63,952 bases of DNA, from the NCBI GenBank assembly GCA_964187785.1, contig OZ076409.1, forward strand, positions 40,054,001-40,117,952, read 5' to 3'. The position numbers and the translations under genes are program-made. This stretch comes from Amphiscolops sp. MND2022. Lineage: Eukaryota. Below, piece after piece: positions 31,296-57,001 of this stretch (within the stretch, counting starts at the first letter, position 1; each line of letters begins with the position of its first letter). The notes beneath the pieces are model-generated. The model saw only the letters and a program-made list of their open reading frames with translations. It did no database searches and was not told the DNA's origin.

Positions 31296-33109
31296 GTATG
31301 CTTGCTTCAAAACTCCGACGTTTTAGTTGAACACGTTTTCTGAAAACGCCCTCCTTAAGATTATACACCGCAAAATGGTAACAAAATGCGAAATCTTTAG
31401 TTTTTGCTCAGTGAAAATTCTAATTCGACTAATTTCCAAACGTTTTTGCCTGTTCATTCTTTCGGAAAGCATATTCAGAATGACTGTTAAAATCGAAAGT
31501 TAAAAAACGGCGTTATCGAGACACCGATGATCGAACACATTATCCAAGGAGGTTTTTCTTCTGACCCGTAATCTCTGAGGTAATGCCTAATGAAGTTCAG
31601 AAAATTCCAAAAGTCTTCTCTCCGAAATACAAGGTGATATATCTTTTTAAATTGCGATTCGATTTTAAAAAAACTACCGCTGTAATTCGTATCAGAATTT
31701 GAGTGAGCTTTGCTTCTGAGACTTTTTTGTAAAAATGAATTTATTAAAATATTACGCGCCTTGAAATTTTCCGTTTCAGCGTCCTCAGCGTTTTGGTACC
31801 CAGTGTAACTCAGTGTAACCCACAGTCAGATTTTAGAACATCATCTCAGGATTTTAACCTGAAAAGAGCTTCACCGAGTTCATCGAATGGTCGTTAGGAC
31901 TCACTTTTCAACTTCATGTGAGATATTTTGGGGTGTTTTTTTGCTGAAACTAGGAAACATGCCAGCCAGTTTTTCTGAGTTCAAGAGATCTGCAAACTTT
32001 TTTGTGCCATTCCTGGGGTCTTTTCGACCGATATAAAAATACACATCATCTCAACTTGAGAGATTGACCTAGAAAATTCCGGCTTTTTTATTGACCTGAA
32101 ACCACCATAATGCTTTCAGCCACTATTTGCAAGAGCGCAACAAAGAACAGCTGGATTACCGGACTATTTGTTCTTTCTGGCTGCAGCATCTGGAACACTT
32201 TGAGCAGTTCTACCAGATAAACGAGAGTCTCAGTCTCCACAGTCCTCAAGAGGAGATTTATGACGAAACTTGGGATGAGTTATAACTAAATTATAACAAA
32301 ACTCCCTTTTGCCACCGCCATATTAGTGCTCGCAGAGTTGTTAACTAGTTATTAGAAAAATTGGCACAAACAGAGGTTAATCATCAAAAACAACATCAAA
32401 CATTTCATAGTAATTTCAAGGATGCCTCAAATGAAACTAATTCCAGTTATGAATGGTTTGCGAAACTTGCCTTAATCAAGTATCAGAGGTTTCGGAACTA
32501 TCCTTATTATCAGTGGTTTTGGAAGTTTGTCTGCAATGAAACAAGTTTGGCTTCAGAAGAAAAAAATGTCATTTAGTAAGCAATCGAAGGACAACTTTGA
32601 AAAGCGGTTGGAAATTGGAAATTGAAAATTGACAATGCACAAAAATAGATTTAATAGATTTCCGGTGCAATGAGAGTAACTGCTGCTAATTTTAACCCAA
32701 TAGTAGAGAACAATGTCTGACTGGTTGGTATATGGTGATATACGTTTTTCAAATTTTATATTTTACTACAAAAAAGTAGATATATTTTCAAACATCCATC
32801 TCGTTTTCTAAAACCAAAAGTGCAGAACAAGGTAACTCAATTTGCCGAATTTCAGTGCCTCAGAAAATTATGAATTGAGGCCACAAATATCTCGTCAATC
32901 TCTCACAAGTCTAAAATTGGCGCCAAGCTAAAATCTCAAACAGTGCAACGTCTTTTGAATATGCTAAGATGCTGTTTTCATGAAAAGTCTCAAAATCTCA
33001 CACTACTGAAATAAATACAGAGAGAGACCATAGAAACGGAAAAAATTCTCCAATCCGCAGCTTTCAAAACAACCAAATGGGCGGCAATAAAAAAGTTTTT
33101 CGAAGTCTC

Positions 33110-34669
33110 TGTCCCAGGCGTCCGCCTGTGATGGCAACACATACTCAATCTGCCATAGCTACAAGAAAGCAGAACCCTTCACCCTTCCATTAAATTAGAA
33201 AACTTACAAGGAAAACTATTATTGTTGCTCTAAAAGGTCATGTAAAACTCTATATATTTCATTTTGTGCAAGTTATATTATGTAATTCTATGCATTAATA
33301 CGAGTTAATTGGACACCAAGGCGTACAGGTAAAGGAAACGCGTTCAAATGTTTTCTTGCCTGTCGCCTTGGTCCGCAAGTCCGACTAACTCGTCATCCAA
33401 TCATAGCGCAGTGTTATGTAACCTTTACTCGTGCTAGCTTAATAGAATTAAAAGACTAGACAGCTATATGCCGCCTGCTAATAAAGCGCTGGGCTGTACC
33501 AGTCTATTGGACACTGAGTCCGCGCTTTAATTGAGAGTGCTATTCTATCTAGCAGTACTGGTTATGTAATAGATAATCTTTTGATAGCTAATAAAAGGCG
33601 CTATTAGTCCTCAAAGGACTGATTTAATATTTTAGACTTAGTTTGATGGTGTTGCTTTATATGTAATTTGCGCAATATATTTAGAATATATGTAAAATTA
33701 CTATCTATACATGTAATAAGCATTTCATACATGTAATATGTATTTCATACATGTAGCACGTTGCTTAGTATGCATGTAAGCAGTTGCTTGTCCTAACGGA
33801 CTCATGGTCCCACCGCCACATTTGCCGCCAAGAGGGACCTTTGATCTACATGATGTAATGTTGACGTTGCCTGCTATTTATAGATTGTAGCTATATTTAG
33901 AAAGCCTTTAAGGCTATTTTTAGATTATGACCACCATTTTATTGAGTGTCATGCAAATTCAAATATATATAACCGGGACTGGTGGGCCCGGGGACAGAAT
34001 TATCCTGATGATACTTTGATGTGTTACTGTTGCGAATTGTTTATTAAAACTACCCGTTCATTTTCACTTTGCAAGCCCAAGATATTAATTTAAATTCTTG
34101 CCTCTTGCAATAATCTCTTATGCCTTCTACTAGACGTCAGAAAGCCAAAGCTAGGAGATCTAGAGAAATGGACATACTGTCCGACTATGATAACCTAGAT
34201 GTGATGCTGGGAAATGAAAATAACAATCCCATTGAAAGAGAACTAGCTGAAGCAATAGATCAGTCATCGGCCCACGGGGACGGTGATACAAACGTGTACC
34301 ATGAAAATGAGTTTAGAGATTACTTACATGAAAATGAACCTTTGAGACAAAACGAAGTCAGGCAATCCTTTGAAGCCTTTTCAAGTGAGTTTAATCTTAG
34401 ATTATCTCAAGAAATGGAATCTATGATGTCAATAATGCATAGCCAAATAAATAGAGCTATATCGACAGCTATAGCTGAAAGAGTTATTCCAGAAATACAG
34501 AATATTGCAAACTCGATGTCCTCTATGGGACACAGGGACACTGAGGCCAGTTCGTCCCCGAATAGCCAGGAAAACAGGGAAAGCGCACCCGGGCCTAAAA
34601 TAAAAATTGCAAAGAAAGATTCAAGATCTGTAGGTGACTTAAGAGATACCATGGGTCATGGTTCTTACA
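33110..34669 (+). repeat. 5' LTR (1560 bp)
   Basis: Near-identical to 47153-48712 (about 4 substitutions seen by eye); TG...CA termini. Confidence 0.96.
33964..34048 (+). promoter_or_regulatory. Candidate LTR TATA box (33964-33972) and ATTAAA poly(A) signal (34043-34048)
   Basis: TATATATAA followed about 70 nt later by ATTAAA, both upstream of the gag ATG; order fits U3-R-U5. Confidence 0.4.
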
Positions 34670-35808
34670 TGGTGACAGGAGCTACCGACACCCAACCGCA
34701 AATTCCCGAATTTCTGACCGGACGAATCCACTCAATCCCGAACCTAGAGAGACAACAATCTACACACAATATCTCTCTGGACACGACTCTGCCAGCCCCG
34801 GCCCCAGAGGCTCCTGAACCTCCTCAGGACCCGTTTAATAGATTAGCCGACGTATTGGTCAATTTGCAAAACAAACCGCAATCTATGACCATCAGACCCG
34901 TACAAACAACCCCGATGACATTTGATGGGAAAAGTGAGAAATTTGAGCTCTTTGAGGACTTGTTCCATACGATGATCAAAATGCAGCCCACAATGACAGA
35001 ACAAATGAAAATTAATCACTTTCATTCTTTGCTACGAAAGGGAGCATTACAGACATTCAGGAACATAAACTCAATCAACCGTCAAACTCTCGAGGACGTA
35101 CTGGTCATATTCCGGAGGAAATATGTCAAACCGGAATCACAAGCAACAGCAAAGCATAAATGGCACCGATTAACCTTCGACCCAAGTACAATGAAACTAC
35201 CAGACTTCTTGGAAGAACTGAACCAAGGTGCAGAAAAAGCATTTGGGGAAAACGCTAAAAGCATGATCGACAGCTTGTTATACGCGAAATTACCCCCAAA
35301 ATTGAAACGATCTGTCAACATGGCCCGTCTGGAGAATGGCACGTATGAAGAAATAGTAGCTCATCTTGAAAGAGAACTGGAACTCAATGCATTAGAAGAG
35401 TCAGATGATCTGCCAATGGCCACTATGGCCTCGGCGTCCACGAGCCATAACAACTTATTGTCCAATGGTATCAACACAAATAAAGACGCCCAATGCTCAT
35501 ACTGCAAAGCGACAGGTCATTATTACAAAAACTGCCCGAAACTCAAGAAGAAAAAGGAAATGGAGGACAAAGACGGTAAAAAACCTCAACGTCCAACTTA
35601 CCCACCGTGTGACACATGTGGCAAAAAGAACCACCCAACCGAAAGATGCTGGCAAGGCGCTGGCGCCCACCTGCGACCCAAAAGGATGCAGACAGAACAA
35701 AATGACCGAAATGCTATAGACTCCGAAGGAAAGCCTAAAAAAGCAAATGACTCAGAAACGGCTACTTCAAGCCAATCCAATACTAAAAAATCTGATTCAA
35801 AAAACTAA
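34120..35808 (+). CDS. gag: Gag (562 aa), two CCHC zinc knuckles
   Basis: Capsid-like region (FDGKSEKFELF...), CSYCKATGHYYKNC and CDTCGKKNHPTERC (both CX2CX4HX4C), located upstream of pol. Confidence 0.93.
   Translation: MPSTRRQKAKARRSREMDILSDYDNLDVMLGNENNNPIERELAEAIDQSSAHGDGDTNVYHENEFRDYLHENEPLRQNEVRQSFEAFSSEFNLRLSQEMESMMSIMHSQINRAISTAIAERVIPEIQNIANSMSSMGHRDTEASSSPNSQENRESAPGPKIKIAKKDSRSVGDLRDTMGHGSYMVTGATDTQPQIPEFLTGRIHSIPNLERQQSTHNISLDTTLPAPAPEAPEPPQDPFNRLADVLVNLQNKPQSMTIRPVQTTPMTFDGKSEKFELFEDLFHTMIKMQPTMTEQMKINHFHSLLRKGALQTFRNINSINRQTLEDVLVIFRRKYVKPESQATAKHKWHRLTFDPSTMKLPDFLEELNQGAEKAFGENAKSMIDSLLYAKLPPKLKRSVNMARLENGTYEEIVAHLERELELNALEESDDLPMATMASASTSHNNLLSNGINTNKDAQCSYCKATGHYYKNCPKLKKKKEMEDKDGKKPQRPTYPPCDTCGKKNHPTERCWQGAGAHLRPKRMQTEQNDRNAIDSEGKPKKANDSETATSSQSNTKKSDSKN
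34670..34682 (+). promoter_or_regulatory. Primer-binding site TGGTGACAGGAGC (probably tRNA-Leu type)
   Basis: TGG directly after the LTR CA; its complement ends CTCCTGTCA-CCA, close to tRNA-Leu 3' ends. The tRNA identity is tentative. Confidence 0.75.
35799..35805 (+). promoter_or_regulatory. -1 ribosomal frameshift slippery heptamer A AAA AAC
   Basis: X XXY YYZ heptamer in the gag frame immediately before the gag TAA; pol lies in the -1 frame and is open across the site. Confidence 0.8.
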
Positions 35809-35810
35809 TT

Positions 35811-38800
35811 TTGCCACGACTCCAAATACATGACTATATGTCGGTTCGACAATATGTCATTTCAGATCCTCCAATAATCAAATACAGCCAAACAATCAAG
35901 GATACAAAAGGAATTCCCACTGTTGTCTGGCAGCAACAAATGGAAAAAGCCTGTATCCGAACTTATAAAATAGTACATAATGATCGCCCAGACCGATTTT
36001 ACGAAATAGACTATACTAAAGACTTCGAGACTCAATTCCGTCCCTTACCCTTGATCGAAGATTATCACCCTCAATACCCCGATCCTGATTATGGCAAAGA
36101 CCCGTATTGGGACGACGAACTCTACGACAGACAAAAACTCCAGTTTAGACAAGACGAATATCCACCAACGGACGATGAGGATGATCCCCCGATAGTGGAC
36201 AACAAACTATCCAGAGCCCTCATTGAACTTTGGCAGCCAAATTCCGAAGCACTTTTAGAAGAAATCGAGGAAACTCAAGAGCAAGAAGACTTTCACGGCC
36301 CTGACAGCCTTTTAGACGAAACAGCCTTCTTGCACATTTTAGTGGAAGAACAAGGAGAACCGTCATACGTTCCCCTCTCCACCAACCTTGGCCTCAAAAT
36401 CAAAAGGAGGATGCTATATTTCCCAATGGACTTTGGAGAACTAACATTAGATGGTCTCATAGACACTGGGGCCCACTCCAGTGCAATACCAGAAGCTGAC
36501 CTTCGGAAAATACGGCTACTTGCACCCCAATCAATAGTGAAAGAGGGTCCTGCCCCGTCATTCCAAATTATGGTCGCAAATGGAGACCTGGAAACTCCGA
36601 AGAGTACAGTAGAACTGAAGTTCGAAGTAGGGGACATAGAGTTCCATGAAATCTTCATAGTGATGGAAAAATTATCCAGCCCCATAATTGGACTTATGTT
36701 CTTACAAAGAAACCACACAGTCCTAGATATGCGCCAAGGCATACTTAACTTTCCCTTCTTCTCGATGCAATTGAAAACAGCTGACCATAAGTACTCCAAT
36801 GTGATGGAACCTATCCTCAACCCCGAGGATATAACGATTCCCCCAAATGGACGAACAATCATCCCTATCCAATCTCAAATTTATGCGGAAAACGCTGTCA
36901 CTGGAATCTTACAACCCAGTGACCTTCTAAATGAAGAAAATGATATAACATTTTGTGCCGCCATAGTCACATTGGACGAAGGGACTACGAGGATCCATGT
37001 CAACAACTTCACAGATCAGCCCTTTAAACTCAAAAAAGGAATGCACATAGCGAATTTCTCTGTGATGACTCCAGAGCAAATGAAGCATGTTAGGCCAATA
37101 GACCCAGTGTCCACTTGGCACCTACTCAATGAAAATGAAGAAGACGCTATTTATTATATCAGCAGTCTTCTCAAAGCCAACAGGAACAATGACCAATACG
37201 AAAAATACTGGTTTCCAACACCCGAAAACCCAGGGGACGAAGAGTCCCATATTCCAATACAAAAGAGAATTCTTAGAGAATTACGAAACCTGCAAGAAGC
37301 AGAAAAACTCAACCCACAAGACAATGAAGAATCTCGACAAAAATTCCTCAGTAACTTTGACTGGAGGGACTCAATGCTACAACAGCATGAAATCAAACAG
37401 ATAGAAGCGCTATTAGTCGAATTCCACGACATATTTGCCCGTCATAGGTTCGACATTGGTATGAATGAGGAGTTCACGGTCAAATTGACCCCGAAGGACG
37501 ACTCTCCTGCCTACAGCCAGAGCTTACCAACTCCGGTCAATTTAAAAGAGGACATACTGGTCGAATTAGCGTCACTACACAAATATGGTATTATAACAAC
37601 ATTACCATTCTCAAAGTACGCTAGCCCTATCTTTGCACAAAAGAAGCCTAATGGGAAACTACGACTACTGGTAGACCTCAGGAAGATCAACAATCTTATT
37701 TCTGATGATTATATCAACAACAACCATCCAGTCAGCACCTTAACGGACGCTGCTCAACATATGGCCGGAAAGAAACTTTTCTGTAAACTTGACTGTTCGC
37801 AAGCGTACCACTGCCTTCAAATGGCGGACCAACGGTCTATAGAGATGTTGGCCTTCAACTTTGCCAGCCGAACGTTCGCATATCGAAGATTGGCCCAAGG
37901 TTTCAGCAGAGCCTTATCGGCATTCTCCAGTGTTATGAGAGAATATTTGGACCGTGTCATCAAAGCCGATCAATGCGCCCAATACGTGGATGATATTGGC
38001 ATTGCGGCCAACGACGCGGAGCATCTCATTAAAAATCTCAGAGCAACTTTCGAATGCATCCGAGAGGCTGGATTGAAATTAACGATGCATAAATGCCACT
38101 TTGGAGCAACTGAGATTGATTTCTTAGGAAGGACAATCACCCCTGAGGGTGTCAAGCCCCAGAAGGAACGAGTCACACAATTCCTAGAAAAAACGAAATT
38201 CCCAAAATCCAAAAAAGCCTTACAACGTTACCTCGGATTCCTCAATTATTATAGAAACTACATACCGAGGTTATCAGAAAAATTAGTCCCTTTCTTTCAA
38301 CTATTAAAGAAAGACGAAAAGGTCTTAGTCACAACGGAACTGATCGAACAATTCAACGAGATCAATAGAGATTTGGACAGATGCACCCAGCTAGCCCTTA
38401 GGCAGCCCTTGCCAAACCGACAGCTAGTCCTGATGACAGATGCTAGCTTTACAGCAGCCGGATATGCTATACTTACTGAAGATGATCCAAATCAGAAATT
38501 TACCTCAACCAAGAAATCCTATGCGCCTATTGCATATGGTTCAAAAACTTTTACTCCTTCACAACTTAAAATGTCAATTTATGCGAAGGAATTTTTAGCC
38601 ATCTATTACGCCTTCAAAGAATTTGGACATATATTCTGGGGCACACCTAAGCCGGTGATTATCCTCACAGATAACAAATCGGTCACAAGGTTCTTCCAGA
38701 CTAAAATAATACCGCCGCCATTATGGAACGCGTGTGACTTTGTAATTCAGTTCAATTTCACTATAGCGCACATTCCAGGCAAAAACAACACAGCGGCGGA

Positions 38801-40958
38801 CTACCTGTCCCGCATGGAAATGGACCCCACTGAAAAGTTAGTCCTAAAAATCCGAGCGGACGTTGAAACCCAACCCATTGAAGTCAATGTCCAATCAGCC
38901 GGCGTGTCTGAAGAAGAACAAGTGTTCTTTACCGAAGAAGACAATGAAACAGAAGAACAAATTTGGGAAAGGAAAAGACAATCAAAAGCAGGACTCAAGG
39001 TCGACGAGACCGTCATCCAAATAGATACTATATCTGAAAATGTAGTGGATGAAAGTACCAATTTCACCCAGAAACTACGTAGAACCAACCAAATACTACT
39101 AGAACAATCCAAAGATCCGATTTTGCTTCATTTAAAAGCAAAAATTCAAAATGAAGAATACTCTGAGGAAATCCTTCAGCAGGACATTCGGTATAAACAT
39201 TATTTAAATAATTTAGACCGTATAGTCCTCAAGGACGAAATAGTGACCCGACAGTATTACGACGAAACGGGACAAATCAAATACCACCAAATCTTACTAC
39301 CAAAGCACCTGTTGAAAGAACTACTGCAAGCAATACATGGCACGGCACATCGACATCCTGGCATCTCTAAAATGCTGCAAGAGATCCGCCAAAAATACTA
39401 CTACCCTGGCATAGCAAAATACGTTAAAAAATGGGTAGAGGGATGCGAAACGTGCGCTAGAGACAAAAGAGTCCCAAATAATACAAGTACAGCAGAATTG
39501 TTGAACTTGCCCGAATGGGACCTTGGTCCAGAAGATGCCATGCAGATAGACTTATTACCAAACTTACCGACTAGTGGCGGATACCAGACGGTGATGACAG
39601 CTATAGATGTATTCTCAAGGTACTTATTCGCCTACCCGCTAATTGAGGCAACAGCCACGAATGTAGCCAAGGTGATAATTGATATCATGACGAAACATTC
39701 ATATTTACCAACAACTCTCATCACAGACAAAGGGTCCGCATTTACATCGACCATCATAGCTGAGATAACTCAAATTTTGGGTATAACACTCAAATGTGCT
39801 ACTACAAAGCACCCGCAAACAATTGGCAAACTCGAAAGGACGCATGCCTCACTCAAAACAAATTTGAAAATGGCCTCAGGGGAATATCGACGCCAATGGC
39901 ATAAATATTTACCATTAGCAGTACTCAACTACAATACCACATACCACTCTAGTATTGGATGTGAACCGAGTAAAGTCTTCCACGGCCGGATTCCCTATAA
40001 CGTCCTAGACCACAAATTGGGAAATAACCCCAATAAAAATTTTTTGCCAACTACAGAATTTGCGGAGGAAGTACAGCAGAGGACACAAATCCTCATAGAT
40101 CAAACGAAAAAGAACATCATGCAGTCTTATTTGAAATATAAGGACTATTACGACCGAAAGGCAAAGGCTGCCCCGCTTAAAGAAAAGGACTATTGTTTTG
40201 TTCTACAACCTAAAGCGGACAGTCAAGCATCAAAAATTCCATTCAAGGAATACAGGTGGATTGGACCATTCGTCATTCAAAAAGTACTGTCCAACGACAA
40301 TTATATTGTCCGTCGTCTAAATACAAATAAAACTCAAATACTTCATCGCATTAGACTAAAGAAATTTGTCCCGAATGCCCCTTTAGAGGACAAATACGAT
40401 GGAGAAAAACTACAACCCGACAATGAGATAGTAATCCCGCAAGACGATTTGTACACTATCTCATGGGAAGTAGACTTTGAGTACGACTTATTTGAACCGA
40501 GGAAGGAAAATTGGACAGACGTGGCCACACGCCGGCCGACGGACGCCGAGTCCACTAATACGGACAATGACGTTACCGACGAGGAAAGCGCTATCAATGA
40601 AAGCTGCAGCGAGCGCACGACAAGAAATTACGTCACCGAGAACGAACGCGTCAGCAATGAAAGTTACAATGAGCGTACGACAGAATATGACGTTACCGAG
40701 GACGAAATATCCCCGAGAGAGAACAATAGCAGTGACGAACCGTCCCCCCCGACTCAAACGTCACAGCGCACTGAGAATGAAAATGACGTCACTAATGATT
40801 TACAAGATACGGAAAACGTTTCAAACACAGGCGCAGATATTACCGTGCCCGGAATATCAAAAAATGGAAATTCAAATGAAAATTCGAGCCCTAGAGGAGG
40901 GAAATACAATCTTCGACCTAACCCTACCCCCAACTTTACTGATGAATACAGATACTAG
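35811..40958 (+). CDS. pol: Pol polyprotein (protease, RT, RNase H, integrase); probably translated as a Gag-Pol fusion rather than from the listed TTG
   Basis: LIDTGA protease motif; YASP..KKPNGKLRLLVDLRKIN and YVDD RT motifs; TDAS/TDNK RNase H; HHCC zinc finger, D-D-E (QIDL, ITDKG, LERT) and GPF integrase motifs; 1715 codons uninterrupted. Confidence 0.97.
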   Translation: MPRLQIHDYMSVRQYVISDPPIIKYSQTIKDTKGIPTVVWQQQMEKACIRTYKIVHNDRPDRFYEIDYTKDFETQFRPLPLIEDYHPQYPDPDYGKDPYWDDELYDRQKLQFRQDEYPPTDDEDDPPIVDNKLSRALIELWQPNSEALLEEIEETQEQEDFHGPDSLLDETAFLHILVEEQGEPSYVPLSTNLGLKIKRRMLYFPMDFGELTLDGLIDTGAHSSAIPEADLRKIRLLAPQSIVKEGPAPSFQIMVANGDLETPKSTVELKFEVGDIEFHEIFIVMEKLSSPIIGLMFLQRNHTVLDMRQGILNFPFFSMQLKTADHKYSNVMEPILNPEDITIPPNGRTIIPIQSQIYAENAVTGILQPSDLLNEENDITFCAAIVTLDEGTTRIHVNNFTDQPFKLKKGMHIANFSVMTPEQMKHVRPIDPVSTWHLLNENEEDAIYYISSLLKANRNNDQYEKYWFPTPENPGDEESHIPIQKRILRELRNLQEAEKLNPQDNEESRQKFLSNFDWRDSMLQQHEIKQIEALLVEFHDIFARHRFDIGMNEEFTVKLTPKDDSPAYSQSLPTPVNLKEDILVELASLHKYGIITTLPFSKYASPIFAQKKPNGKLRLLVDLRKINNLISDDYINNNHPVSTLTDAAQHMAGKKLFCKLDCSQAYHCLQMADQRSIEMLAFNFASRTFAYRRLAQGFSRALSAFSSVMREYLDRVIKADQCAQYVDDIGIAANDAEHLIKNLRATFECIREAGLKLTMHKCHFGATEIDFLGRTITPEGVKPQKERVTQFLEKTKFPKSKKALQRYLGFLNYYRNYIPRLSEKLVPFFQLLKKDEKVLVTTELIEQFNEINRDLDRCTQLALRQPLPNRQLVLMTDASFTAAGYAILTEDDPNQKFTSTKKSYAPIAYGSKTFTPSQLKMSIYAKEFLAIYYAFKEFGHIFWGTPKPVIILTDNKSVTRFFQTKIIPPPLWNACDFVIQFNFTIAHIPGKNNTAADYLSRMEMDPTEKLVLKIRADVETQPIEVNVQSAGVSEEEQVFFTEEDNETEEQIWERKRQSKAGLKVDETVIQIDTISENVVDESTNFTQKLRRTNQILLEQSKDPILLHLKAKIQNEEYSEEILQQDIRYKHYLNNLDRIVLKDEIVTRQYYDETGQIKYHQILLPKHLLKELLQAIHGTAHRHPGISKMLQEIRQKYYYPGIAKYVKKWVEGCETCARDKRVPNNTSTAELLNLPEWDLGPEDAMQIDLLPNLPTSGGYQTVMTAIDVFSRYLFAYPLIEATATNVAKVIIDIMTKHSYLPTTLITDKGSAFTSTIIAEITQILGITLKCATTKHPQTIGKLERTHASLKTNLKMASGEYRRQWHKYLPLAVLNYNTTYHSSIGCEPSKVFHGRIPYNVLDHKLGNNPNKNFLPTTEFAEEVQQRTQILIDQTKKNIMQSYLKYKDYYDRKAKAAPLKEKDYCFVLQPKADSQASKIPFKEYRWIGPFVIQKVLSNDNYIVRRLNTNKTQILHRIRLKKFVPNAPLEDKYDGEKLQPDNEIVIPQDDLYTISWEVDFEYDLFEPRKENWTDVATRRPTDAESTNTDNDVTDEESAINESCSERTTRNYVTENERVSNESYNERTTEYDVTEDEISPRENNSSDEPSPPTQTSQRTENENDVTNDLQDTENVSNTGADITVPGISKNGNSNENSSPRGGKYNLRPNPTPNFTDEYRY

Positions 40959-41194
40959 TCAGAAAACTTGAATTACCAGTCCCTTTACTTCACTTCCAGC
41001 CCTTGAGGACTTTTATTTTTTACTTGGGACTACTCTGACTGATTTTTCTTATCGATTACTGGAACTAATTATATACGAAAAGAGAGACTCAGTGGCGAAT
41101 AATACAAAGCCACACAAACAGGCAACAAAGAAGAAATAAATATAATGCAATTTACAACAAGTACAGTCTAGAAACAAATGTACTCTTTGTACAT

Positions 41195-42345
41195 TTAAGA
41201 TTTAGAAGTTCCAGGAGCGTTTGCATCACTGGACTTTGCGGCTTCAGTCTCACCAGCTGCCCGAAAGCCAACTTTCTTGCCTTTACCAGGGGACAGCTTA
41301 CGTTGTTTCCCCCCTTCTTTGGACGAGGAATTGGAAGCGGACTCGATGTCAGGACGGACACTCTTGCCCAGAGCCTTGTAGACTGCAATTAAAGTTTTAT
41401 GCAAATTAGCCTTGCCGAAACTGTCTACGTGTGACCAAGGGTCTCCTGGGACGTTGCCAATACTGAACCGGAATTCCAGATCTTTGAAGGTACCCAGGGA
41501 AGCTTCTGTAGTGCACACAGCCACTGAATTAGCAACATTAGCTAGGTAAGACTGTGCAGGCATGATGACATCGAAAAGTCTACTTCGGGGATCATTACAG
41601 TCAACTCCAGAGAATTTGATGGCTGGGAGCTCTGGCAACTTAGAAGTCAGGCACAGACAACTCAACTGGAAGATGTAGAACAGATGCTTCCGCAACTTCA
41701 ATTCAGGCATACCAATCAGAAAGGCTACCATGTCGGTGAAGACCTCTGGGGTATCTTTGACTCCAGAATTGGCTTGACGGAAAAACTCCACGAAATCGAT
41801 GTACTCATCTCGGGCATCAGTCTCTGGGGAATTCTCTAACCAGCCTCGCAAACTAAAGGATCTGTACAGAGCGGAGAAACAATATGTGGCTTGCTCAAGC
41901 GGCAGACTCAGGAGGGCTACTGGATCGAAACTGCCCAGACCTCTTACGATACCAGCATTCAAGCTAATGTCGGCAAGGAAGACTTTCAAAAGATGGACGA
42001 GGTAACCTCGGGCCTTGGTGGCGAAATCGTCCCGAAGGGCCTCAGCTGCTGTCTCCGTCTCTTCAGGCGTCAGTTGCTTCTCGCTATAAATTCTCCTGAC
42101 ACGAGCATGGCAGGCGGCATCCAAATTTTCTTTGAGCTTCAAGCGACTCAAGAAATCGCGGTTAGACAGTTGTCGCCAATTCTGTCCTTGCAAATCTCCC
42201 AGCGACTTCCAGTCCAGAATATCAGGCACGTGTCTGGGAAGTAGTGCTCGACCTGCCAACTTGCGAATGAAAGTATGGAACTCTCGGAAGGTGTAGAAGC
42301 CACTGTCCCTTCGCTGTGCAAACTGACTCTCGAAGCTCTTGGTGT
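41195..42345 (-). CDS. Antisense cargo gene, terminal coding exon 4 (1151 nt)
   Basis: Acceptor TTTTGTTTTCCAG|AC in phase 1 joins the 390-codon ORF; minus-strand AATAAA at 41012-41017 downstream. Confidence 0.82.
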
Positions 42346-42495
42346 CTGGAAAACAAAACATTACCATCCTGAAGGGTCTTTATGACACCATTAGACCTAG
42401 CATGTCAATCTACTATATCTAGCATGAGCCTCAAATAGTGGTAAGACAAACTGGGACCATGAGGTCCGTAGACAAGAGAAAACCAATATACTAAC

Positions 42496-42712
42496 AATCG
42501 CGGACAATTCGTGCGAAGAACTCCAGCTTGATGGTGAAGAAATCATCAGCTATGATTTCCCACTCGAGGCTTTGGGGCTTGTTTTTGACCCCCTGGTGGA
42601 CCTGTGGTGGTGCTATCTTCGTCAAATGTTGGTGTACAGACTTCCAGTTCGCAATTAGTTCCGAACATATGGCAGGTACAGCGGCAATCTCCAGGTGATA
42701 TGTAGTCATCGC
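42496..42712 (-). CDS. Antisense cargo gene, coding exon 3 (217 nt)
   Basis: Acceptor TTGTAG|GCG ATG in phase 0; donor GAT T|GTTAGT (phase 1) removes the in-frame stop. Confidence 0.78.
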
Positions 42713-42780
42713 CTACAATCAACATGCTTATTGGAGGCAATTCAAAACTGGACCTACAGTCTTACGGACAGTGACCTTAC

Positions 42781-43266
42781 CTTGACGAATTCTGGCATCA
42801 GGGCGGCCCAGGGCTGTCCACCGCAACCGTCCAAGAAGGTAATCAGAAATTTCAACTGAGAGAAGAAGCTGATACTGCCAAACACGCTGCCCCATCGTTC
42901 ATGCATCAGGTCTGGCAGACAAAGAGCATCAAATCGGAAAGGGTACTCAATCCCTTTTTGGAAGAGGCAAGAACGTTCAAGAAGAGGAATCACCTCTGCA
43001 GGACACCCGGACACGCTCACGATCTGAGGTTGTGTTGATAGGACGGACAAGAGGCGGGAAAGTACCAACAGGAAACCAGCTGCAGGCTCTGAAGCAGTCC
43101 GGTATCGTAGCAAACGGACGACATTGAGGGATTCGCCCTTCCAGAACCGGATCGAGATAAAGCTGTAGGTGCCTCGCATTTCAAACTCCAGAGAGTACTG
43201 ACCCGTGACACTGACTTGATAGGCGATGTCAGCGATGCCACAGAGGAAGATGTGATGAAAGATCGT
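42781..43266 (-). CDS. Antisense cargo gene, coding exon 2 (486 nt)
   Basis: Acceptor TTTTGTTTTAG|ACG, open in phase 0 into the MRGTYSF ORF; donor AAG|GTAAGG. Confidence 0.82.
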
Positions 43267-43351
43267 CTAAAACAAAATTAACCAGGATGAAAATGAGTCG
43301 GGTCTACGTTAGGACTAAAGGACCCTGAGGCTAAAAACCGCCGATACTTAC

Positions 43352-45181
43352 TGTCAGTTTGGAGGAGCCCCAATCGTAAGGAGAGAACAGACTCTGATGA
43401 TTGGTAACAGTGCCAATCTGTGACCATAGCGACTCAAGGACGTTTAGATCTCCACAACGGGGAGCGAAGAGAGCAACCATGGAGATTTGAACACACAGTC
43501 TGATCTCCTCCTGCCCAGCGATGGAGCCAAGGCCAGCCATATGGTCCTCGTAGAAGGGGTTACTGCTGCCAGTTTCGACCAAAGGGACTTGCATAAAGAA
43601 AGGCTTCTCTTTCTCAAGCTCCAAGGGGGTCAACAATTGGCCCTTCTTCCCTCTGACTTCGTACACAGTCCGGCCAGTCACCTTGTCCTTCTTCCTTAGG
43701 TGCTCATACCTCCAGCGCTGATCTTTGCGAAAATGCGACTCACTCTGGAAATGGCGGACAATCTCCCGGGCTCCTTTTGAGAAAATGGAAACATTCGTCT
43801 TACATATCTGGCAGTAGAACTTATGTTTGTTGTGTTCTGGGTCAAGGGGGCCAGTGACGAATGTCCGAGTCCACTGAATTCCTTTGAAATAGGCTTCTTT
43901 CATTACTTTGCCTGTGCGTACTGGAAGCCGGCGACGTTTGCGAGGTGGACTTGAGGCAGAAGCTTGGTCAGCGGTCAATGTGGCTAGAGGCTCATAGTCA
44001 GTCGAGCAGAATCCTGGACTAGGGACTTGCTGTGCGGATGAAGGGCCAGGTGTTGATGTCGAACCTTGATCTGGAGGACTTGGAGGAGGATTGATGCTCA
44101 GATCCTTGCTGGTTCTCTGAGAATTGATGACGAACTCATCTTCCGAACTGAGGGCTCCGCTAGTGTACCCCTCAGTCCCAACGTCACTGTCTTCCGCACC
44201 TGATCCAAGGCTGCCGCTCTGCTTACGGAAGATCTTGATTCGCTGCTTCCCGGATCCTTGAGGAGTACCTTGGGAGCGAATTCCTGCCCGGATCGCTTCT
44301 TCCAGCATGTTCTTCATTTGATGAAGGGAAGAAGTAATGGTCTCCGTGGAGACGGCACGCAAGATGGAATGGACTTGCCCCTGATTGAAGGCTACAGTCG
44401 CATGGCCTACCGGGAGGATACATGGGTTGGTCTCATTGAAATGCTGATTTATGAGCGTTCTAGCAGAGGCAGATAAAGGTCTGGTTGGACTGAAGGGCTT
44501 CGGAGAAGATGTGCCAGGTAACTCAGCCGAGGTGGATGGCTTAACATTCTCATGGGTCTCAGTCCCAGTGGAGCTTAGCGCATCCAGTGCAATCATGAAA
44601 GGTGGTTCCTTGATGGTCTCAGCACCGGAACTATCGAGTATTTCTTCAGCGTCGCTGGTATCAGTTTGGAAATAGTCCGCCTTGGTGACGGAAAATCCAG
44701 CCTCACTGACAGCATCATCGCCCCGCTCAATCTCAGCCTCAGGAGACTCCTTGTCTTGCGACCCAGTCGTGACCTGGGGAATTGGTTCCGACTCAGAAGT
44801 TTTCTCAGCGATTGACTTTGGTGCATTGTCTACAATGGCAGATGTAGTAGGAGGCAAGAAGGAGATGTCAAGTCCAAGGCTCTGGCAACCCAAAGTCTGC
44901 AATTGACGGTCAATGTAAGCGGAAATGCTTTCATCCGTAGAAGGGCTTGGGGTCGGAGCAGTCTTATCAGGATCATCTCCTGGCGGCACAAGTTGCGTGG
45001 ACTCAGGGTCAACAGGGATCGAAGTGGCCTGACTAGTACCAGCTTCTTTGGGGATGGCAACTTCTTCTTCAGTCATGAATGCAGTAGCGGTGGCAGGAAC
45101 AATATCGTTTTGCTCTTCGGACGACATGTCTAAACAGAAAGAGATAAACTCAAGCGGATAACTTCCTGAGAAAGAGTCCAT
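43352..45181 (-). CDS. Antisense cargo gene, coding exon 1 (S/P/E-rich N-terminus, NLS-like PPRKRRR, BED-like zinc finger); start at 45181 or more likely 45127
   Basis: 616-codon ORF ending at a perfect donor ACA|GTAAGT (phase 0); contains W..FYCQICKTNVSIFSKGAREIVRHFQSESH. Confidence 0.85.
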
Positions 45182-46401
45182 TACCGCGTTAAAAAATCTT
45201 CCGGAAGTAGATATTTCGAACTCAAGTGAATACTTGTGTTATGGGACAGGAAGTACGTGAATGAAATGAGAGCCCTGATCAAGCCTCAGATTAATTCAAT
45301 ACTAAAATAGAAACAAAACCTGAAAAGCTACTGACCTGTTTGAAAGTAGAGAAGGATGTCTTGAGAAGGGAGTACTGTGTACAGTTAGACTGGTGGTCAC
45401 TGAATTGGAAGCTGAGCGATCAGTAGAGAAGGATGACGAAGCTGGACTGGTGACAATACAGCAACAGTTGTAGGGAGAAGACAAATTCTTCTTTGATGAA
45501 GGACAAGAAAGATTGCTGGAGATGAATTAGCAAAAGGGACTCAGTGTCGATTGTCCTAGGATGACCCAAGAAATCCACAAAAGACGTAATTGGAAGAAAT
45601 TACAAATGACTACTTTAAATGAATACTGAGTAAATACGACTAGAAGACTAAAAGACTAGAGATGATTAAATACTGGACGATAATACAAAGAGTAACTGGA
45701 AAGAATTTGAAAATAATGAATTGAAAAGAGAATTGGCAATGTGACAAGATGTCAAAGTTGGAGTTCGTGGCTATACAATTTGGTGTCAAATTTACAAGAT
45801 ATTTACAAGTTACACTATTATGTGGATAGAGTCTGCCAGCGATATCTACATTCTTCCATTTATCTTATTTCGAAACTTTACCATTTTATTAAATATTTCA
45901 TGATTTTACCAGGATTTTATTTAATTTCAGGTCATTTTATATTATTCCTTATATGGATTTACGACCTTGGGAAGCCATTTTTATTCAAGAGAAATTTTGC
46001 TGCATTCCTATTGGTTGATCAGAAACGCTGATGGACGGCGTGGCCGTCTGCCATAGCTTCACCCTCTTGAAACTTTTAAGTGCTTGTTGAGTGTTAATAA
46101 ACACTTGAAGCGACGCCCTTAATATGGAAGTGTTGATAGAGTTGATGTAAGTCAACAAAGCCTCAGTCGGCATTTTCAAAGAAGACCGAGCGGCTAGTTG
46201 AAAGAAACCGAAGAAAAGGAATTTTGTTATTGAGGATTTGGTGAGCCGAGAAGGGCAAAATCCCGGGAAACTGAAAAGAAAATCCCGCTAGTCGACGGAG
46301 GAAGAAATCGCCATTGTTTCAGTTTCAATCTCGAAATTCAGCTGCTTATCAAATTTCAAAACCTAAAACTAACAACTTCCAAGATTGCCAAAAAAGCAAT
46401 A

Positions 46402-47241
46402 ATGAATAAATTCCTTGCAAGTCAATTTGACTCAGAGTCCCCTGAGTATTACCCTGAAGATTTTCAAGGAGCAGCCCCGGGAGACGGTGTTATTTGCATC
46501 TCTAGTGACGACGACATGGAGTGCGCAAGCAGGGCGTCCGTGGATGACTTGGAGAGCCTGTCTGATGACGACGAAATGGCCCTCTTGGCCCAATGTGTGG
46601 AAAGACAACTGGACTTGCCGTCGACTTCAACAGGAATTCAAATCCCCTCAGCTTCAGGAAAGCAAGAAGTGACCCGAGCTACTACTCCCAGGCTTGCATA
46701 CGTGCCGGGACCGATGTTCGACGCTGGGTACTTTGAGCTGGGAATGGGCAGAGGACCAATTGCGAGGGATTCACGGCTTAGAAACGACCATCCAATTAAC
46801 TTGTGCAGCCAACTGATCCCGATGGTCGACACACCCATGTCGCCCCCAGCAATTGATAAATATCCTACGGGCGACTGGAGGATAACCGCAGAAGCCACTT
46901 CTAGCAGCTCCCAACGACACGAAGGTGGTATTCACTTCCGTGGACCGACCGCAGCAGATAACCCGTATATTACAGGGTGCACAGATTGTCTCGTATGTGG
47001 AAAATCTGTGGAACAGATTCAGGACGAAGCGGTCATAGATTATCTTCACAAGACGGCCGTCCGAGGAGAATCCGCCGAGCAGTTCAATGCGAGACGACTA
47101 GCCTTCTTGGAAGGAATGAAGGTGGGCCGCTTTATGCTTATTCCAGGGGGAGTGTCCCAGGCGTCCGCCTGTGATGGCAACACATACTCAATCTGCCATA
47201 GCTACAAGAAAGCAGAACCCTTCACCCTTCCATTAAATTAG
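46402..47241 (+). CDS. Extra sense ORF (279 aa), acidic SIM-like N-terminus and Cys cluster; function unknown
   Basis: ATG-initiated ORF with GC content above the flanks; VICISSDDD and CTDCLVC motifs; crosses the PPT and ends 89 nt inside the 3' LTR. Confidence 0.75.
   Translation: MNKFLASQFDSESPEYYPEDFQGAAPGDGVICISSDDDMECASRASVDDLESLSDDDEMALLAQCVERQLDLPSTSTGIQIPSASGKQEVTRATTPRLAYVPGPMFDAGYFELGMGRGPIARDSRLRNDHPINLCSQLIPMVDTPMSPPAIDKYPTGDWRITAEATSSSSQRHEGGIHFRGPTAADNPYITGCTDCLVCGKSVEQIQDEAVIDYLHKTAVRGESAEQFNARRLAFLEGMKVGRFMLIPGGVSQASACDGNTYSICHSYKKAEPFTLPLN
47145..47152 (+). promoter_or_regulatory. Polypurine tract
   Basis: AGGGGGAG directly abutting the TG of the 3' LTR. Confidence 0.75.
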
Positions 47242-48712
47242 AAAACTTACAAGGAAAACTATTATTGTTGCTCTAAAAGGTCATGTAAAACTCTATATAT
47301 TTCATTTTGTGCAAGTTATATTATGTAATTCTATGCATTAATACGAGTTAATTGGACACCAAGGCGTACAGGTAAAGGAAACGCGTTCAAATGTTTTCTT
47401 GCCTGTCGCCTTGGTCCGCAAGTCCGACTAACTCGTCATCCAATCATAGCGCAGTGTTATGTAACCTTTACTCGTGCTAGCTTAATAGAATTAAAAGACT
47501 AGACAGCTATATGCCGCCTGCTAATAAAGCGCTGGGCTGTACCAGTCTATTGGACACTGAGTCCGCGCTTTAATTGAGAGTGCTATTCTATCTAGCAGTA
47601 CTGGTTATGTAATAATTAATCTTTTGATAGCTAATAAAAGGCGCTATTAGTCCTCAAAGGACTGATTTAATATTTTAGACTTAGTTTGATGGTGTTGCTT
47701 TATATGTAATTTGCGCAATATATTCAGAATATATGTAAAATTACTATCTATACATGTAATAAGCATTTCATACATGTAATATGTATTTCATACATGTAGC
47801 ACGTTGCTTAGTATGCATGTAAGCAGTTGCTTGTCCTAACGGACTCATGGTCCCACCGCCACATTTGCCGCCAAGAGGGACCTTTGATCTACATGATGTA
47901 ATGTTGACGTTGCCTGCTATTTATAGATTGTAGCTATATTTAGAAAGCCTTTAAGGCTATTTTTAGATTATGACCACCATTTTATTGAGTGTCATGCAAA
48001 TTCAAATATATATAACCGGGACTGGTGGGCCCGGGGACAGAATTATCCTGATGATACTTTGATGTGTTACTGTTGCGAATTGTTTATTAAAACTACCCGT
48101 TCATTTTCACTTTGCAAGCCCAAGATATTAATTTAAATTCTTGCCTCTTGCAATAATCTCTTATGCCTTCTACTAGACGGCAGAAAGCCAAAGCTAGGAG
48201 ATCTAGAGAAATGGACATACTGTCCGACTATGATAACCTAGATGTGATGCTGGGAAATGAAAATAACAATCCCATTGAAAGAGAACTAGCTGAAGCAATA
48301 GATCAGTCATCGGCCCACGGGGACGGTGATACAAACGTGTACCATGAAAATGAGTTTAGAGATTACTTACATGAAAATGAACCTTTGAGACAAAACGAAG
48401 TCAGGCAATCCTTTGAAGCCTTTTCAAGTGAGTTTAATCTTAGATTATCTCAAGAAATGGAATCTATGATGTCAATAATGCATAGCCAAATAAATAGAGC
48501 TATATCGACAGCTATAGCTGAAAGAGTTATTCCAGAAATACAGAATATTGCAAACTCGATGTCCTCTATGGGACACAGGGACACTGAGGCCAGTTCGTCC
48601 CCGAATAGCCAGGAAAACAGGGAAAGCGCACCCGGGCCTAAAATAAAAATTGCAAAGAAAGATTCAAGATCTGTAGGTGACTTAAGAGATACCATGGGTC
48701 ATGGTTCTTACA
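47153..48712 (+). repeat. 3' LTR (1560 bp)
   Basis: Copy of 33110-34669, preceded by the purine tract AGGGGGAG and followed by the TSD GTCTC. Confidence 0.96.
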
Positions 48713-48771
48713 GTCTCACCTTGCCGAAAAAGTTTGAAGATGGTTCCCTCTTGTTTCTTCTCGATGCGTAA
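48163..48771 (+). CDS. 3'-LTR copy of the Gag N-terminus (183 aa) reading out into flanking DNA (202 aa total)
   Basis: Identical to Gag residues 1-183, then diverges exactly at the LTR end (GSY-SLTL versus GSY-MVTG). Expression unknown. Confidence 0.5.
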   Translation: MPSTRRQKAKARRSREMDILSDYDNLDVMLGNENNNPIERELAEAIDQSSAHGDGDTNVYHENEFRDYLHENEPLRQNEVRQSFEAFSSEFNLRLSQEMESMMSIMHSQINRAISTAIAERVIPEIQNIANSMSSMGHRDTEASSSPNSQENRESAPGPKIKIAKKDSRSVGDLRDTMGHGSYSLTLPKKFEDGSLLFLLDA

Positions 48772-49159
48772 AATAGTAAAACTATCCGTCATGAAATTAT
48801 AGAACGTTTGAGATGTCCTTCCTAAACAACCGGGTACGTTATACACGAATTTCATATTTTATGGCCGAAAGATTTTAGGTTAGACTCGTTAATTATTTCA
48901 AAATCTGCAATTAGTGTGACTCAATCTGAAAAGATGAGAACACCAGCGTTAGCTATATTCGAACCCCCAATAAGAGCCTGATTAGAAGCAAAAAATAAAA
49001 AAAAGCTAAAACTGATTTTTTGACTCAATATCCGATTTATAATATTATATATCCGTTATATCCGAAAAAGCGCTTATTTCGACGTATGAGGAATTTATCA
49101 CTACATATATGTTATATCCGGAAAGGCAATTCTTATAGCAGTTCCATTTGAGAACAACC

Positions 49160-49230
49160 GGTGCCGAGTGGGCTTCTAACCCGCTGACAGTTTCCCAACC
49201 CACCCGCTAACCACTTGGTCATCAAAACGC
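49160..49230 (-). repeat. Degenerate tRNA-like (SINE head-like) segment, one per triplication unit
   Basis: Minus strand TGACCAAGTGG (A-box-like) and GGTTAGAAGCCC (degenerate B box); no full cloverleaf. Confidence 0.3.
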
Positions 49231-49849
49231 ATATTCCCTTCCTTCAGTGCAAATCATAAAAATAGTGACCTTTACAAACAGTGACAGCTGGAGGAGAAAA
49301 ACTTATCTTGTTGCAAATTTTATTCAAAATGCGTCGACAACAAAAATTCTCCTTGGATCTTTTATTGCAATAAATAAAATAGAATATATTATTTTGAAAT
49401 ATTAGAAATAGAAATAAATATTTTAAAAGTAAATTAATTTTGAATTATTTTAACAATTACTTCCGCACATCCAACTATGTAAAATAATAACCAATGGGAG
49501 CAATATTACTGATTGTGGTGTAAGCAAACAATGCACACAATTAATGACGTTAATTGCCTCAGTCCAAACTTCGCTAAATAGTCCAAGCAAGCGAAGCAAG
49601 GATAACAACATTACAGTGCACAGGCAAGCTTTTCGCTGCTTTTCGTGGAATCCGGAACACGAAAATTGAGAAAAGTCGTGGAATCCAGGACAAAATTTCT
49701 CTTTGATGTTAAGCGTGTCTTGGATTCCACGACAGTGCTTGTTCTGGATTCCACGCCAACACTGCTGCTATAATGACACTTTTGCCGCTGCTCTCTGATT
49801 GGTCCGCTGATTTTGAGTAATCATTTTTGGAAAGGTAGAAAAATTTAAA

Positions 49850-50725
49850 TTAATTCAATTTTATATCAAAGGAAATTGTTTTGACTGACACGAAAAATCC
49901 CAAAGTACGAATAGAGATACTCGTGACTGGTACCAAAATTAAAGCATGTCATCAAATAATGGCAGATTGTGATGATCTGGCAGTTTCTTCAAAACTGGTA
50001 CTAAACTGAAAAATACGAATATTTGTGCTATATAATATGCATTTTGCATGATCATTATTTGAAAGGAAAAGAACTTCAATTAAATCAATTTTATATCAAA
50101 AAAAATTGTTTTGATTAACACGAAAAATCCCAAAGTACGAATAGAGATACTGGTGACTGGTACCAAAAATGAAGCTTGTCATTAAAAAGTGGCAGATTTT
50201 GATGATCTGGCAGTTTCTTCAAAACTGGTACTAAACTGAAAAATACGAATATTTGTGCTATATAATATGCATTTTGCATGATCATTATTAGAAAGGCAAA
50301 AGAACTTGAATTAAATCAAGTTTATATCAATGGAACTTGTTTTGATCGACACGAAAAATCCTAGAAGTTCGAAAAGAGATACTCGTGACTGGTACCAAAA
50401 TAAAAGCATGTCATCAAATAATGGCAGATTGTGATGATCTGGCAGTTTGTTCAAAACTGGTACTAAACTGAATAGTACGAATATTTGTGTAATATAATAT
50501 TCATTTTGCATGATCATTATTAGAAAGGCAGAAGAACTTGAATTGAATCAATCTTATATCAAAGGAAATTGTTTTTGATTGACACGAAAAATCCAAGAAG
50601 TACGAATAGAGATACTCGTGACTGGTACGAAAAGTGAAGCATGTCATTAAAAAATGGCAGATTGTGATGATCTGGCAGTTTGTTCAAAACTGGTACTAAA
50701 CTGAAAAACCTAAAAATTTTGTGTG
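49850..50725. repeat. About four diverged ~230-bp tandem subrepeats (also about 52596-53470 and 55347-56220)
   Basis: The motif ttatatcaa..gacacgaaaaatc..gtgactggtac..gatgatctggcagttt..aaaactggtactaaactgaa recurs with a period of about 230. Confidence 0.9.
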
Positions 50726-56389: not shown

Positions 56390-57001
56390 TTTTTAGTCGG
56401 CGTTTCATGAAGTGAAACGCGACTATTATGGTGACTCTTTTTTTTTCTTTTTTTTCAATCCATACGAACTGACCAAAATAGTTCTTAAAAGTTCTACCAA
56501 ATATTAAGGTGTTGAATTGCACTATTTGGACTAGCGAACTGGACCAAAAAAGTTTTTCCTGTTTTTCTGCGTAACGTACCATACCGGGCGAGACCAAAGG
56601 GTCCCCCTTTTCAATTTTTTTTTGGCACTGCGAGACTTTTTTTTCGGAAATTTTTTCCCCAAAGAGCCTTCCCTTCAATTTTTTTGCTGTTTTGCGACAG
56701 AATGGATGTTGAAAAACCCCAAAGGCTCTTTCCCCCTTTCAATTATTCGGCTTTGTGAGACTTTTTTCTAAATTATGTTTTTTCGCCAAAGGGTTCCCCC
56801 TTCAACTGCGACAAAAATGGTGACAATTTCAGAAGTGCCCCCCCTTTTAGCGCGCCAGGGCTCGCGTTAGCGGGCCCCGGCGCGTCACTCGGTCCACTTT
56901 TTCTGGTTTTTCGATTTTCGAGTACTGTAAATTGACACTTGGAAATCCTTTTGCTATTTTTGAGCCTTGGATATGGCGCCGACTTGGGCGGTCCCGGCTT
57001 G
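56390..57001 (+). mobile_element. HINE-like element copy (hairpin-less copies at about 50891-51488 and 53636-54241)
   Basis: TTTTTAGTCGGCG ... CGCCGACTTGGGCGGTCCCGGCTTG. Confidence 0.65.

Follow-up and report, generated by a model that had tools for sequence, protein, structure and literature searches.

The usual view of retrotransposons is that of gag-pol machines; few carry extra genes, which are little understood, and in animals almost nothing has been described beyond those of the env type. Among the closest described systems are plant Ty3/gypsy elements in which an additional open reading frame lies, antisense, between pol and the 3' long terminal repeat (LTR). These frames (aORF-3R) are known from Grande (gene23), RIRE2, Retand, PvRetro13, and Tat lineages with PMD or Transposase_28, and the passages covered of the relevant articles describe them as occurring in the majority of copies within a family and as roughly matching the element's own proteins in degree of conservation, and their products, of unknown function, as presumed regulators that are nuclear or bind DNA (PMC7264820, PMC11963269, PMC4408406). 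This article concerns a gene found in the same location, and also on the opposite strand, within a Ty3/gypsy element carried by a 63,952-nucleotide stretch of contig OZ076409.1 (the window; all positions are those of that stretch). It is likewise conserved across copies. It differs from the plant cases in that its protein is unrelated, with no Pfam match to PMD or Transposase_28, in that it is large and multi-exon, and in that its host is probably an animal.

Two further systems invite comparison. Boty of Botrytis carries an antisense extra gene (brtn) in the interval between pol and the 3' LTR, and Boty-like gypsy elements are described from Botrytis cinerea and Sclerotinia, according to the passages covered (PMC8365987, PMC7264820, PMC4227169). 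The gene in the window resembles brtn in being an antisense extra gene so placed in a gypsy element outside plants, and differs from it in that brtn is fungal. The brtn gene of Boty-like elements is said to have been treated by Zhao et al. (2011, Virology 417:248). Minus-strand protein genes of retroelements are also represented by HBZ of HTLV-1 and by other deltaretrovirus antisense genes, in the portion covered of PMC11963269. HBZ is similar in being a minus-strand coding gene with an antisense transcript of its own, and its protein is nuclear and regulates its element. The main HBZ mRNA is spliced. However, transcription of HBZ begins in the 3' LTR and yields a small protein of the bZIP type, whereas the protein considered here has 1227 residues and no bZIP was found in it.

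Results

Structure of the antisense gene

The original prediction, made from the letters of the window, had joined four minus-strand open reading frames by three GT-AG introns. All of its coordinates and phases were correct: exons 45181-43352, 43266-42781, 42712-42496, and 42345-41195 join to give 3684 nt, or 1227 amino acids and a stop codon, with no internal stops. Both of its product lengths were reproduced, 1227 amino acids from the ATG at 45181 and 1209 from a second ATG at 45127 (codon 19). The ATG at 45181 is the start common to diverged relatives, because their tblastn matches begin at residue 1.

In the spliced translation, exon 1 (43352..45181, 610 codons, residues 1-610) specifies an N-terminal part rich in S, P, and T, followed by a basic cluster and a zinc finger. 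Exon 2 (42781..43266, 162 codons, residues 611-772) has, by prediction, strands and helices arranged as in an RNase H-like fold. Exon 3 (42496..42712, 72 codons plus 1 nt, residues 773-845) contains one further intron in other lineages, and exon 4 (42345 down to and including the stop at 41195, residues 845-1227) encodes a confidently modelled all-alpha domain and a disordered tail ending in GTSKS. The sequence and its copies define intron 1 (43267..43351, 85 nt, phase 0, GTAAGT..TTTTAG), intron 2 (42713..42780, 68 nt, phase 0, GTAAGG..TTGTAG), and intron 3 (42346..42495, 150 nt, phase 1, GTTAGT..TTCCAG), each of which ends in a pyrimidine-rich tract and AG.

Copies of the gene and purifying selection

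The assembly searched comprises 1.07 Gb. Full-length matches to the DNA of the gene at 98-100% identity number at least 37 (of 1307 first-look candidates), and the 30 best-matching genomic copies, the window's own among them, were analysed. All six splice dinucleotides are kept in 29 of the 30, and 26 keep these as well as the whole spliced frame; the four impaired copies are two with one premature stop each, one with a changed acceptor, and one with a frameshift. Variable sites number 58, 47, and 184 at codon positions 1, 2, and 3 of the minus-strand frame. Variants present in at least two copies must have arisen in replicating lineages. They comprise 24 nonsynonymous and 99 synonymous changes, a ratio of nonsynonymous to synonymous polymorphism per site (pN/pS) of 0.074, and the singletons comprise 82 and 90 (pN/pS 0.277). 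For the last 420 codons of pol in the same 30 copies, pN/pS is 0.19 among shared and 0.24 among singleton variants. The antisense gene is thus constrained at least as strongly as the 3' end of pol (0.074 vs 0.19 for shared variants). Among the matches listed to the exon-4 protein at 89-100% identity, 98 of 109 are free of stops.

A deeper comparison is afforded by the allele at locus L033, from which the gene in the window differs by a synonymous divergence (dS) of 1.44 (pS 0.64) and a nonsynonymous divergence (dN) of 0.114, both Nei-Gojobori estimates, giving a dN/dS of 0.079. By region, dN/dS is 0.02-0.03 over residues 421-845 and 0.156 over residues 61-420. That the frame and splice sites are under no neutral decay, as originally proposed, is borne out by the shared pN/pS and by dN/dS at this depth, and also by still more diverged lineages, in which splice sites and intron positions are kept at 37-48% protein identity. 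Judged from the sequences, then, the gene is evidently real and maintained. It is more than a chance reading frame, because 26 of the 30 copies keep frame and splice sites and because variation is biased so strongly towards the third codon position.

One might still deny that the four frames form a single spliced gene and suppose that they arose by chance, belong to several small genes, or mirror constraint on the sense strand. This is extremely improbable. The junctions are in frame and have canonical sites, whose dinucleotides persist in all but one of the copies. In 11 diverged lineages, exon 2 has the same length and the same AG and GT bounds, whereas the introns have no fixed length and diverge in sequence (identity of 56-71%, as compared with 64-81% in the gene body). 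Where the introns of other lineages are in frame, they contain stop codons. Finally, the codon-position bias follows the minus frame, and the longest open frame on the plus strand of 41195-45181 has at most 134 codons.

The regions flanking the gene contain candidate signals for its expression. An AATAAA (41012..41017, minus strand), about 180 nt past the antisense stop and kept in all 30 copies, may serve as a poly(A) signal. Upstream of the ATG, a conserved stretch (45182..45880, minus strand) is a candidate 5' untranslated region and may contain an internal antisense promoter. It has few shared variants, and 45200-45600 remains 94-99% identical even in comparisons of elements whose gene bodies have an identity of 64-81%. 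A scan upstream of the ATG for promoters and terminators of the bacterial type gave chance-level results, the models being bacterial and the host eukaryotic.

Linkage of the gene to its element

The pol 3' end adjoins the antisense gene in all 30 loci fetched by their match to the gene. From the side of pol, a search with its last 499 residues gave at least 86 scored matches, 60 of them in open frames of at least 1711 codons. Among the matches listed, 49 of the 86 are followed, no more than 1.5 kb downstream, by an oppositely oriented exon-4 match (the spacing in the window's element is 243 bp). Three of the seemingly unpaired pol copies were fetched, and all three carry the gene as a diverged allele, with an intact spliced frame of 3684 nt and introns of 83, 68, and 157 nt, all GT..AG. 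The gene does, therefore, travel with the element, as had been claimed.

Perhaps, however, the element captured a gene from its host or from a foreign source by transduction and now copies it along as a passenger that plays no role for it. Gene capture by LTR elements is documented, in the passages covered of PMC7264820 and PMC6431247. Composition, too, fits a separate origin: the guanine-plus-cytosine fraction (G+C) of the antisense gene is 0.498 and its observed/expected ratio of CpG 0.65, as compared with 0.429 and 0.89 for gag-pol and with 0.36-0.39 and ~0.96-0.99 for the flanking genome. Such deviant values could reflect a separate origin or methylation linked to transcription. But passengers decay, and this gene shows the shared variants and the low dN/dS over a dS of 1.44 given above. 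It also has the same place, orientation, and introns in lineages 37-48% identical, under a constraint at least that of the 3' end of pol. No single-copy host homologue or annotated full-length protein was found, which is weak evidence in the same direction. We therefore consider a passenger very unlikely and a gene that serves its element the better reading.

Two loci are of interest in their own right. At L032 (G000:C1:35418725-35428600), the antisense gene is present with merely the last ~150 nt of pol upstream of it, the remainder being A+T-rich and tandemly repeated, and three further copies share identical exon-4 match scores with this one. L032 is possibly a non-autonomous derivative that keeps the accessory gene alone. 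At G000:C5:3368637-3397971, three same-strand exon-4 matches of one diverged lineage have equal scores and are spaced exactly 14,102 bp apart, which suggests a tandem array of whole elements.

Exchange of the gene body between lineages

In the three fetched elements with a diverged allele, the gene body is 64-81% identical to that of the window at the nucleotide level and the introns 56-71%. The flanks of the gene body, by contrast, show 93-99% identity in these elements. Protein identity over codons 1-60 is 97%, and the 3' end around 41000-41200 is 93% identical. Between the window and L033, dS over the last 499 codons of pol is 0.045, as against the 1.44 of the antisense gene, i.e., modules ~240 bp apart differ about 30-fold in synonymous divergence. 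Lineages have evidently recombined, since anciently diverged alleles sit beside near-identical pol. The simple explanation is that the gene body is a recombining, exchangeable cassette, and the simplest route to exchange would be template switching between co-packaged RNAs from different lineages.

The inferred breakpoints lie around codon 60-90 and close to the stop codon, with an additional boundary at ~45880. Over 45880-46681, the 30 copies with a gene 98-100% identical fall into distinct classes relative to the window: 7 copies at 74-75%, 2 at 89-91%, 15 at 94%, and 6 at 100%. The mosaic thus has a second boundary between modules near 45880.

Depth of the family and turnover of introns

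Exon 4 (382 residues) was used as the query against a protein library of 1.84 billion cluster representatives, of which 435 matched at E<=1e-3 and 75 at E<=1e-30. The best 150 of the 435 clusters are short frames without names, all 80 of the near-length hits are unnamed frames from ENA, and neither the zinc-finger region nor exon 4, as protein queries, retrieved any annotated or longer full-length relatives. A metagenome scan with the family alignment gave 156 pattern matches, none of them confirmed. Within the same genome there are many diverged multi-copy lineages (7,400-7,750 first-look candidates per query, which are not copy numbers). The pol of L031, for instance, has 85% protein identity to that of the window and its antisense protein 37-47%; the antisense protein of L032 is 38-42% identical.

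Read from the sequence, L031 and L032 both have three GT..AG introns at the same codons and phases, different in length and sequence. The automatic junction finder was ambiguous for some junctions, and these two loci rest on the reading of the sequence together with the scan for exon 2. In that scan, 13 diverged loci were covered, and 11 have an exon 2 of exactly 162 codons whose AG and GT bounds are placed identically; of the two exceptions, one is damaged and one is without the region. An apparent absence of introns 1 and 2 in L040, L041, L044, and L045 was rejected, as the long matches read through introns that are in frame and contain stops.

Intron content nonetheless differs between lineages. 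An extra GT..AG interval of 73-118 nt, bringing a change of frame, splits exon 3 in at least seven of them (L031, L032, L037, L038, L039, L040, and L044), between the residues matching 816/817 and 818, and is absent in the lineage of the window and in L033. Intron 3 is missing in two foreign relatives, P0022 and P0141. Because of these differences, it appears that introns were gained or lost while the gene resided in retroelements.

The C-terminus of the protein (41198-41212) is unexpectedly constant, following the pattern ..G-[ST]-S-K-x-stop in most of 10 relatives at 28-43% identity. K381 is invariant there, in contrast with the otherwise disordered, fast-evolving tail.

Predicted domains and folds of the product

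Residues 1-420 are rich in S, P, and T. The basic cluster that follows from residue 414 (RKRRR, residues 414-418, 43928..43942, minus strand) belongs to what we take to be the nuclear-localization class of motifs and may direct the protein to the nucleus. Beyond it lies a zinc-finger-like motif, CxxC..(16)..HxxxxxH (residues 457-483, 43733..43813, minus strand). Pfam zf-C2H2_ZN292 matches it in three of four versions of exon 1 at E 1e-3 to 4e-3, below the cut-off, and an atlas search gave leads from the region to the finger of Spin-doc/GT2D2, with a score of 0.90, and to unnamed mollusc proteins.

The part encoded by exon 4, modelled from 44 sequences, is all-alpha with a predicted local distance difference test score (pLDDT) of 78.7 and 198 residues at 90 or above. 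It aligns to residues 367-607 of the hAT transposase Hermes (Z 5.0, root-mean-square deviation 6.0, 176 residues aligned). In a wide structural search, Hermes was the sole row that aligned most of the model, the other matches being short-helix ones with Z up to 5.7. An atlas search with exon 4 gave no usable match. The exon-2 model, from 11 sequences, is weak (mean pLDDT 60.4), yet it runs alpha, beta, beta, beta, alpha, beta, alpha, the succession typical of RNase H-like folds. Hermes ranks first for it among 48,161 chains (Z 6.3, 121 of 162 residues aligned, root-mean-square deviation 3.9), followed by other proteins of the RNase H fold: the P element and Transib transposases, retroviral integrases, Argonaute, IscB, and actin-like ATPases. 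In a second structural look, the top four rows were all Hermes, with Z 6.3-6.4, and the next row had 5.4.

Might the product then be an active nuclease or transposase, providing the element with a second, DNA-level route to move or integrate, or cutting host DNA? The predicted RNase H-like fold with Hermes as its best neighbour speaks for this, as do the very strong constraint on the core and an invariant glutamate on predicted strand 1 (E637, or E27 of exon 2). Past predicted strand 4, however, stand an invariant S-G and then a nearly invariant C, with no acidic residue, and an active DDE site is therefore unsupported. An intact DDE site is not evident in the models, and the recognizable triad has apparently been lost. 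Furthermore, Pfam gave no transposase match, no terminal inverted repeats were found at the borders of the gene or of the element, and the element has the ordinary hallmarks of an LTR retrotransposon along with a 5-bp duplication. An active enzyme is accordingly unlikely, though a somewhat stronger candidate than a passenger, and we favor a product that helps the element by other means. A nested DNA transposon was also considered as the source of the gene and rejected, there being no inverted repeats at the gene's borders.

The carrier element and its surroundings

The carrier is a Ty3/gypsy (Metaviridae) element of 15.6 kb, with paired TG..CA LTRs, a target-site duplication, a primer-binding site, a polypurine tract, and the pol domain order of that group. 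The LTRs (5', 33110..34669; 3', 47153..48712; both plus strand) are 1560 bp long with 4 mismatches between them, and the 5-bp sequence GTCTC is read at both ends of the element (33105..33109 and 48713-48717). These data agree with the earlier description of a young element, with near-identical LTRs and a target-site duplication, that carries the gene in the interval from pol to the 3' LTR. A primer-binding-site-like sequence (34670..34688, plus strand) begins with TGG immediately past the 5' LTR, and a polypurine-tract-like CCAGGGGGAG (47143..47152, plus strand) abuts the 3' LTR, both from reading of the sequence.

A gag-like frame, open from stop to stop and starting within the LTR (34114..35808, plus strand), has a Pfam match to DUF1759 (E 5e-5) and a hint of a zinc knuckle, both below the cut-off. 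The pol frame (35796..40958, plus strand, 1720 codons) contains, by Pfam, protease (residues 211-304), dUTPase (342-424), reverse transcriptase (615-780), RNase H (846-970), and integrase (1168-1339); the E-values are 5e-23 for RVT_1, 2e-16 for RT_RNaseH, 1e-15 for Integrase_H2C2, 1e-11 for rve, and 5e-5 for dUTPase. The dUTPase match, narrowly past the cut-off, lies between protease and reverse transcriptase. A dUTPase at this junction is known from gypsy elements of rotifers, planarians, and fungi (PMC5408684, PMC6431247, in the passages covered).

Between the antisense gene and the 3' LTR is another open frame, in the sense orientation (46234..47241, plus strand, 335 codons, first Met at 46402), which spans the polypurine tract and extends into the LTR for 89 nt. 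Over 46234-46681 it is free of stops in all 30 copies, though some of them are merely 74% identical there. Its variable sites number 47, 35, and 79 by codon position, with a shared pN/pS of 0.23-0.35, and it has no match in Pfam. This frame may be the element's fourth gene.

Elsewhere in the window is a second LTR-like pair (17683-19660 and 23250-25235, 98.2% identical). Between its two members (17683-25235 in all) lie two minus-strand open frames, 336 and 643 codons long, which match nothing in Pfam and resemble neither the antisense protein nor pol. Tandem duplications adjoin the element at 48741-56987 (about 3 units of 2.75 kb, 98.4-98.6% identical, with internal 231-bp repeats of ~90% identity), and another lies at 8050-12658 (two 2.3-kb units, 97.7% identical).

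Discussion

The overall explanation that we consider highly probable is that a young Ty3/gypsy element carries, antisense, a functional accessory gene that travels with it. Several points weigh against this reading or against our view of the protein. The 30 best matches, as a sample, are biased towards young, intact copies. The pN/pS of singletons, at 0.28, is below what is expected of decay after insertion, which probably reflects sister copies that were not sampled. In 45880-46681 there is no co-variation with the gene (identities of 74%, 89-94%, and 100% all occur beside a gene 98-100% identical), which means that simple co-evolution of a protein with a binding site there finds no support. 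As to the protein, Z scores of 5.0-6.4 are within reach of unrelated models, by the structural tool's own notes, and the exon-2 model has a low mean pLDDT. Foldseek searches of PDB and BFVD with the exon-2 and exon-4 models gave nothing at E below 0.03 and none at E<=0.001. Even at E<=10, none of the Pfam models for hAT (Dimer_Tnp_hAT), DUF4371, and BED matches a sequence among the 11 of exon 2 and the 44 of exon 4. A profile search of the sequences of solved structures gave one chance-level hit for exon 4 (E 0.81) and none for exon 2. Lastly, the S-G-C past predicted strand 4 stands where no acidic residue is invariant.

Even so, a hAT-type DNA transposase is the best available reading of the protein's origin, because the fold matches of exon 2 and exon 4 combine with the lead from the zinc finger; we put such descent at slightly better than even. 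As to function, we tentatively suggest a nuclear DNA-binding helper of the element, under which we group the roles of transcriptional activator, anti-silencing factor, and integration-targeting factor.

How might such a gene work? Transcription would start at an internal antisense promoter within 45182-45880, the minus-strand transcript would be spliced at the three GT-AG introns, as their sequences suggest, and polyadenylation would occur near 41000. The product, 1227 residues long, would consist of a disordered N-terminal third rich in S, P, and T, the RKRRR cluster, a C2H2-like finger, and a strongly constrained core, in which the exon-2 part has the predicted RNase H-like order of strands and helices and the exon-4 part forms a large all-alpha domain. 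It would enter the nucleus, bind DNA, and aid the element. The introns persist whenever the element is copied: reverse transcription uses the sense transcript, where they are reverse-complemented and so escape the notice of the spliceosome. An intron in antisense orientation stays in the sense genomic RNA and hence is copied. As a speculative history, about as tentative as the proposed function, a Ty3/gypsy clade, probably of animals, may have adopted a hAT-type transposase gene with its introns, antisense, as the source of a catalytically disabled, lineage-specific DNA-binding factor with a zinc finger, its anciently diverged alleles shuffled as cassettes among near-identical elements and its introns gained or lost in situ.

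The locus is a natural counterpart to the antisense-intron reporter of retrotransposition assays. The presence and absence of introns in the family bears on intron loss and gain amid abundant reverse transcriptase, and the 30-fold synonymous gap between neighboring modules offers a clean system for the recombination of co-packaged retroelement RNAs. With a large natural allelic series in one genome (at least 37 full-length and at least 109 exon-4 matches, and thousands of first-look candidates), the function of such genes becomes directly testable. If the transposase origin is true, one class of mobile element will have domesticated the enzyme of another.

That last prospect makes the hAT family the most informative comparison at the level of the protein. 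Like Hermes, the product would have, in order, an N-terminal zinc finger, an RNase H-like core, and a large all-alpha domain, all of them predicted here. Hermes is the top structural neighbor of two parts modelled independently, and the lead from the finger is to that of GT2D2/Spin-doc. On the other hand, there are no sequence-level matches to hAT models, no inverted repeats, and only modest structural scores. Host proteins that we take to be derived from hAT transposases with loss of catalysis (ZBED proteins, GTF2IRD2, SPIN-DOC, DAYSLEEPER) are similar in that the catalytic site here, too, is apparently lost, and different in that this gene would be owned by a retrotransposon rather than by the host.

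The original prediction overstated the novelty of the locus, as genes of this antisense type, placed between pol and the 3' LTR, have already been described in plants and in Boty. In the literature, covered in sources other than subscription journals and Repbase reports, no animal LTR retrotransposon was found to carry an antisense gene with introns. In the text of the two plant reviews, the words "intron" and "introns" do not occur, nor, in the passages covered, is the exchange of cassettes against a near-identical pol described there. The gene in the window differs from the known cases in its probable host group, in its size and multi-exon structure, in its transposase-like protein, in the deep conservation of its exon structure, and in the exchange of its body as a cassette.

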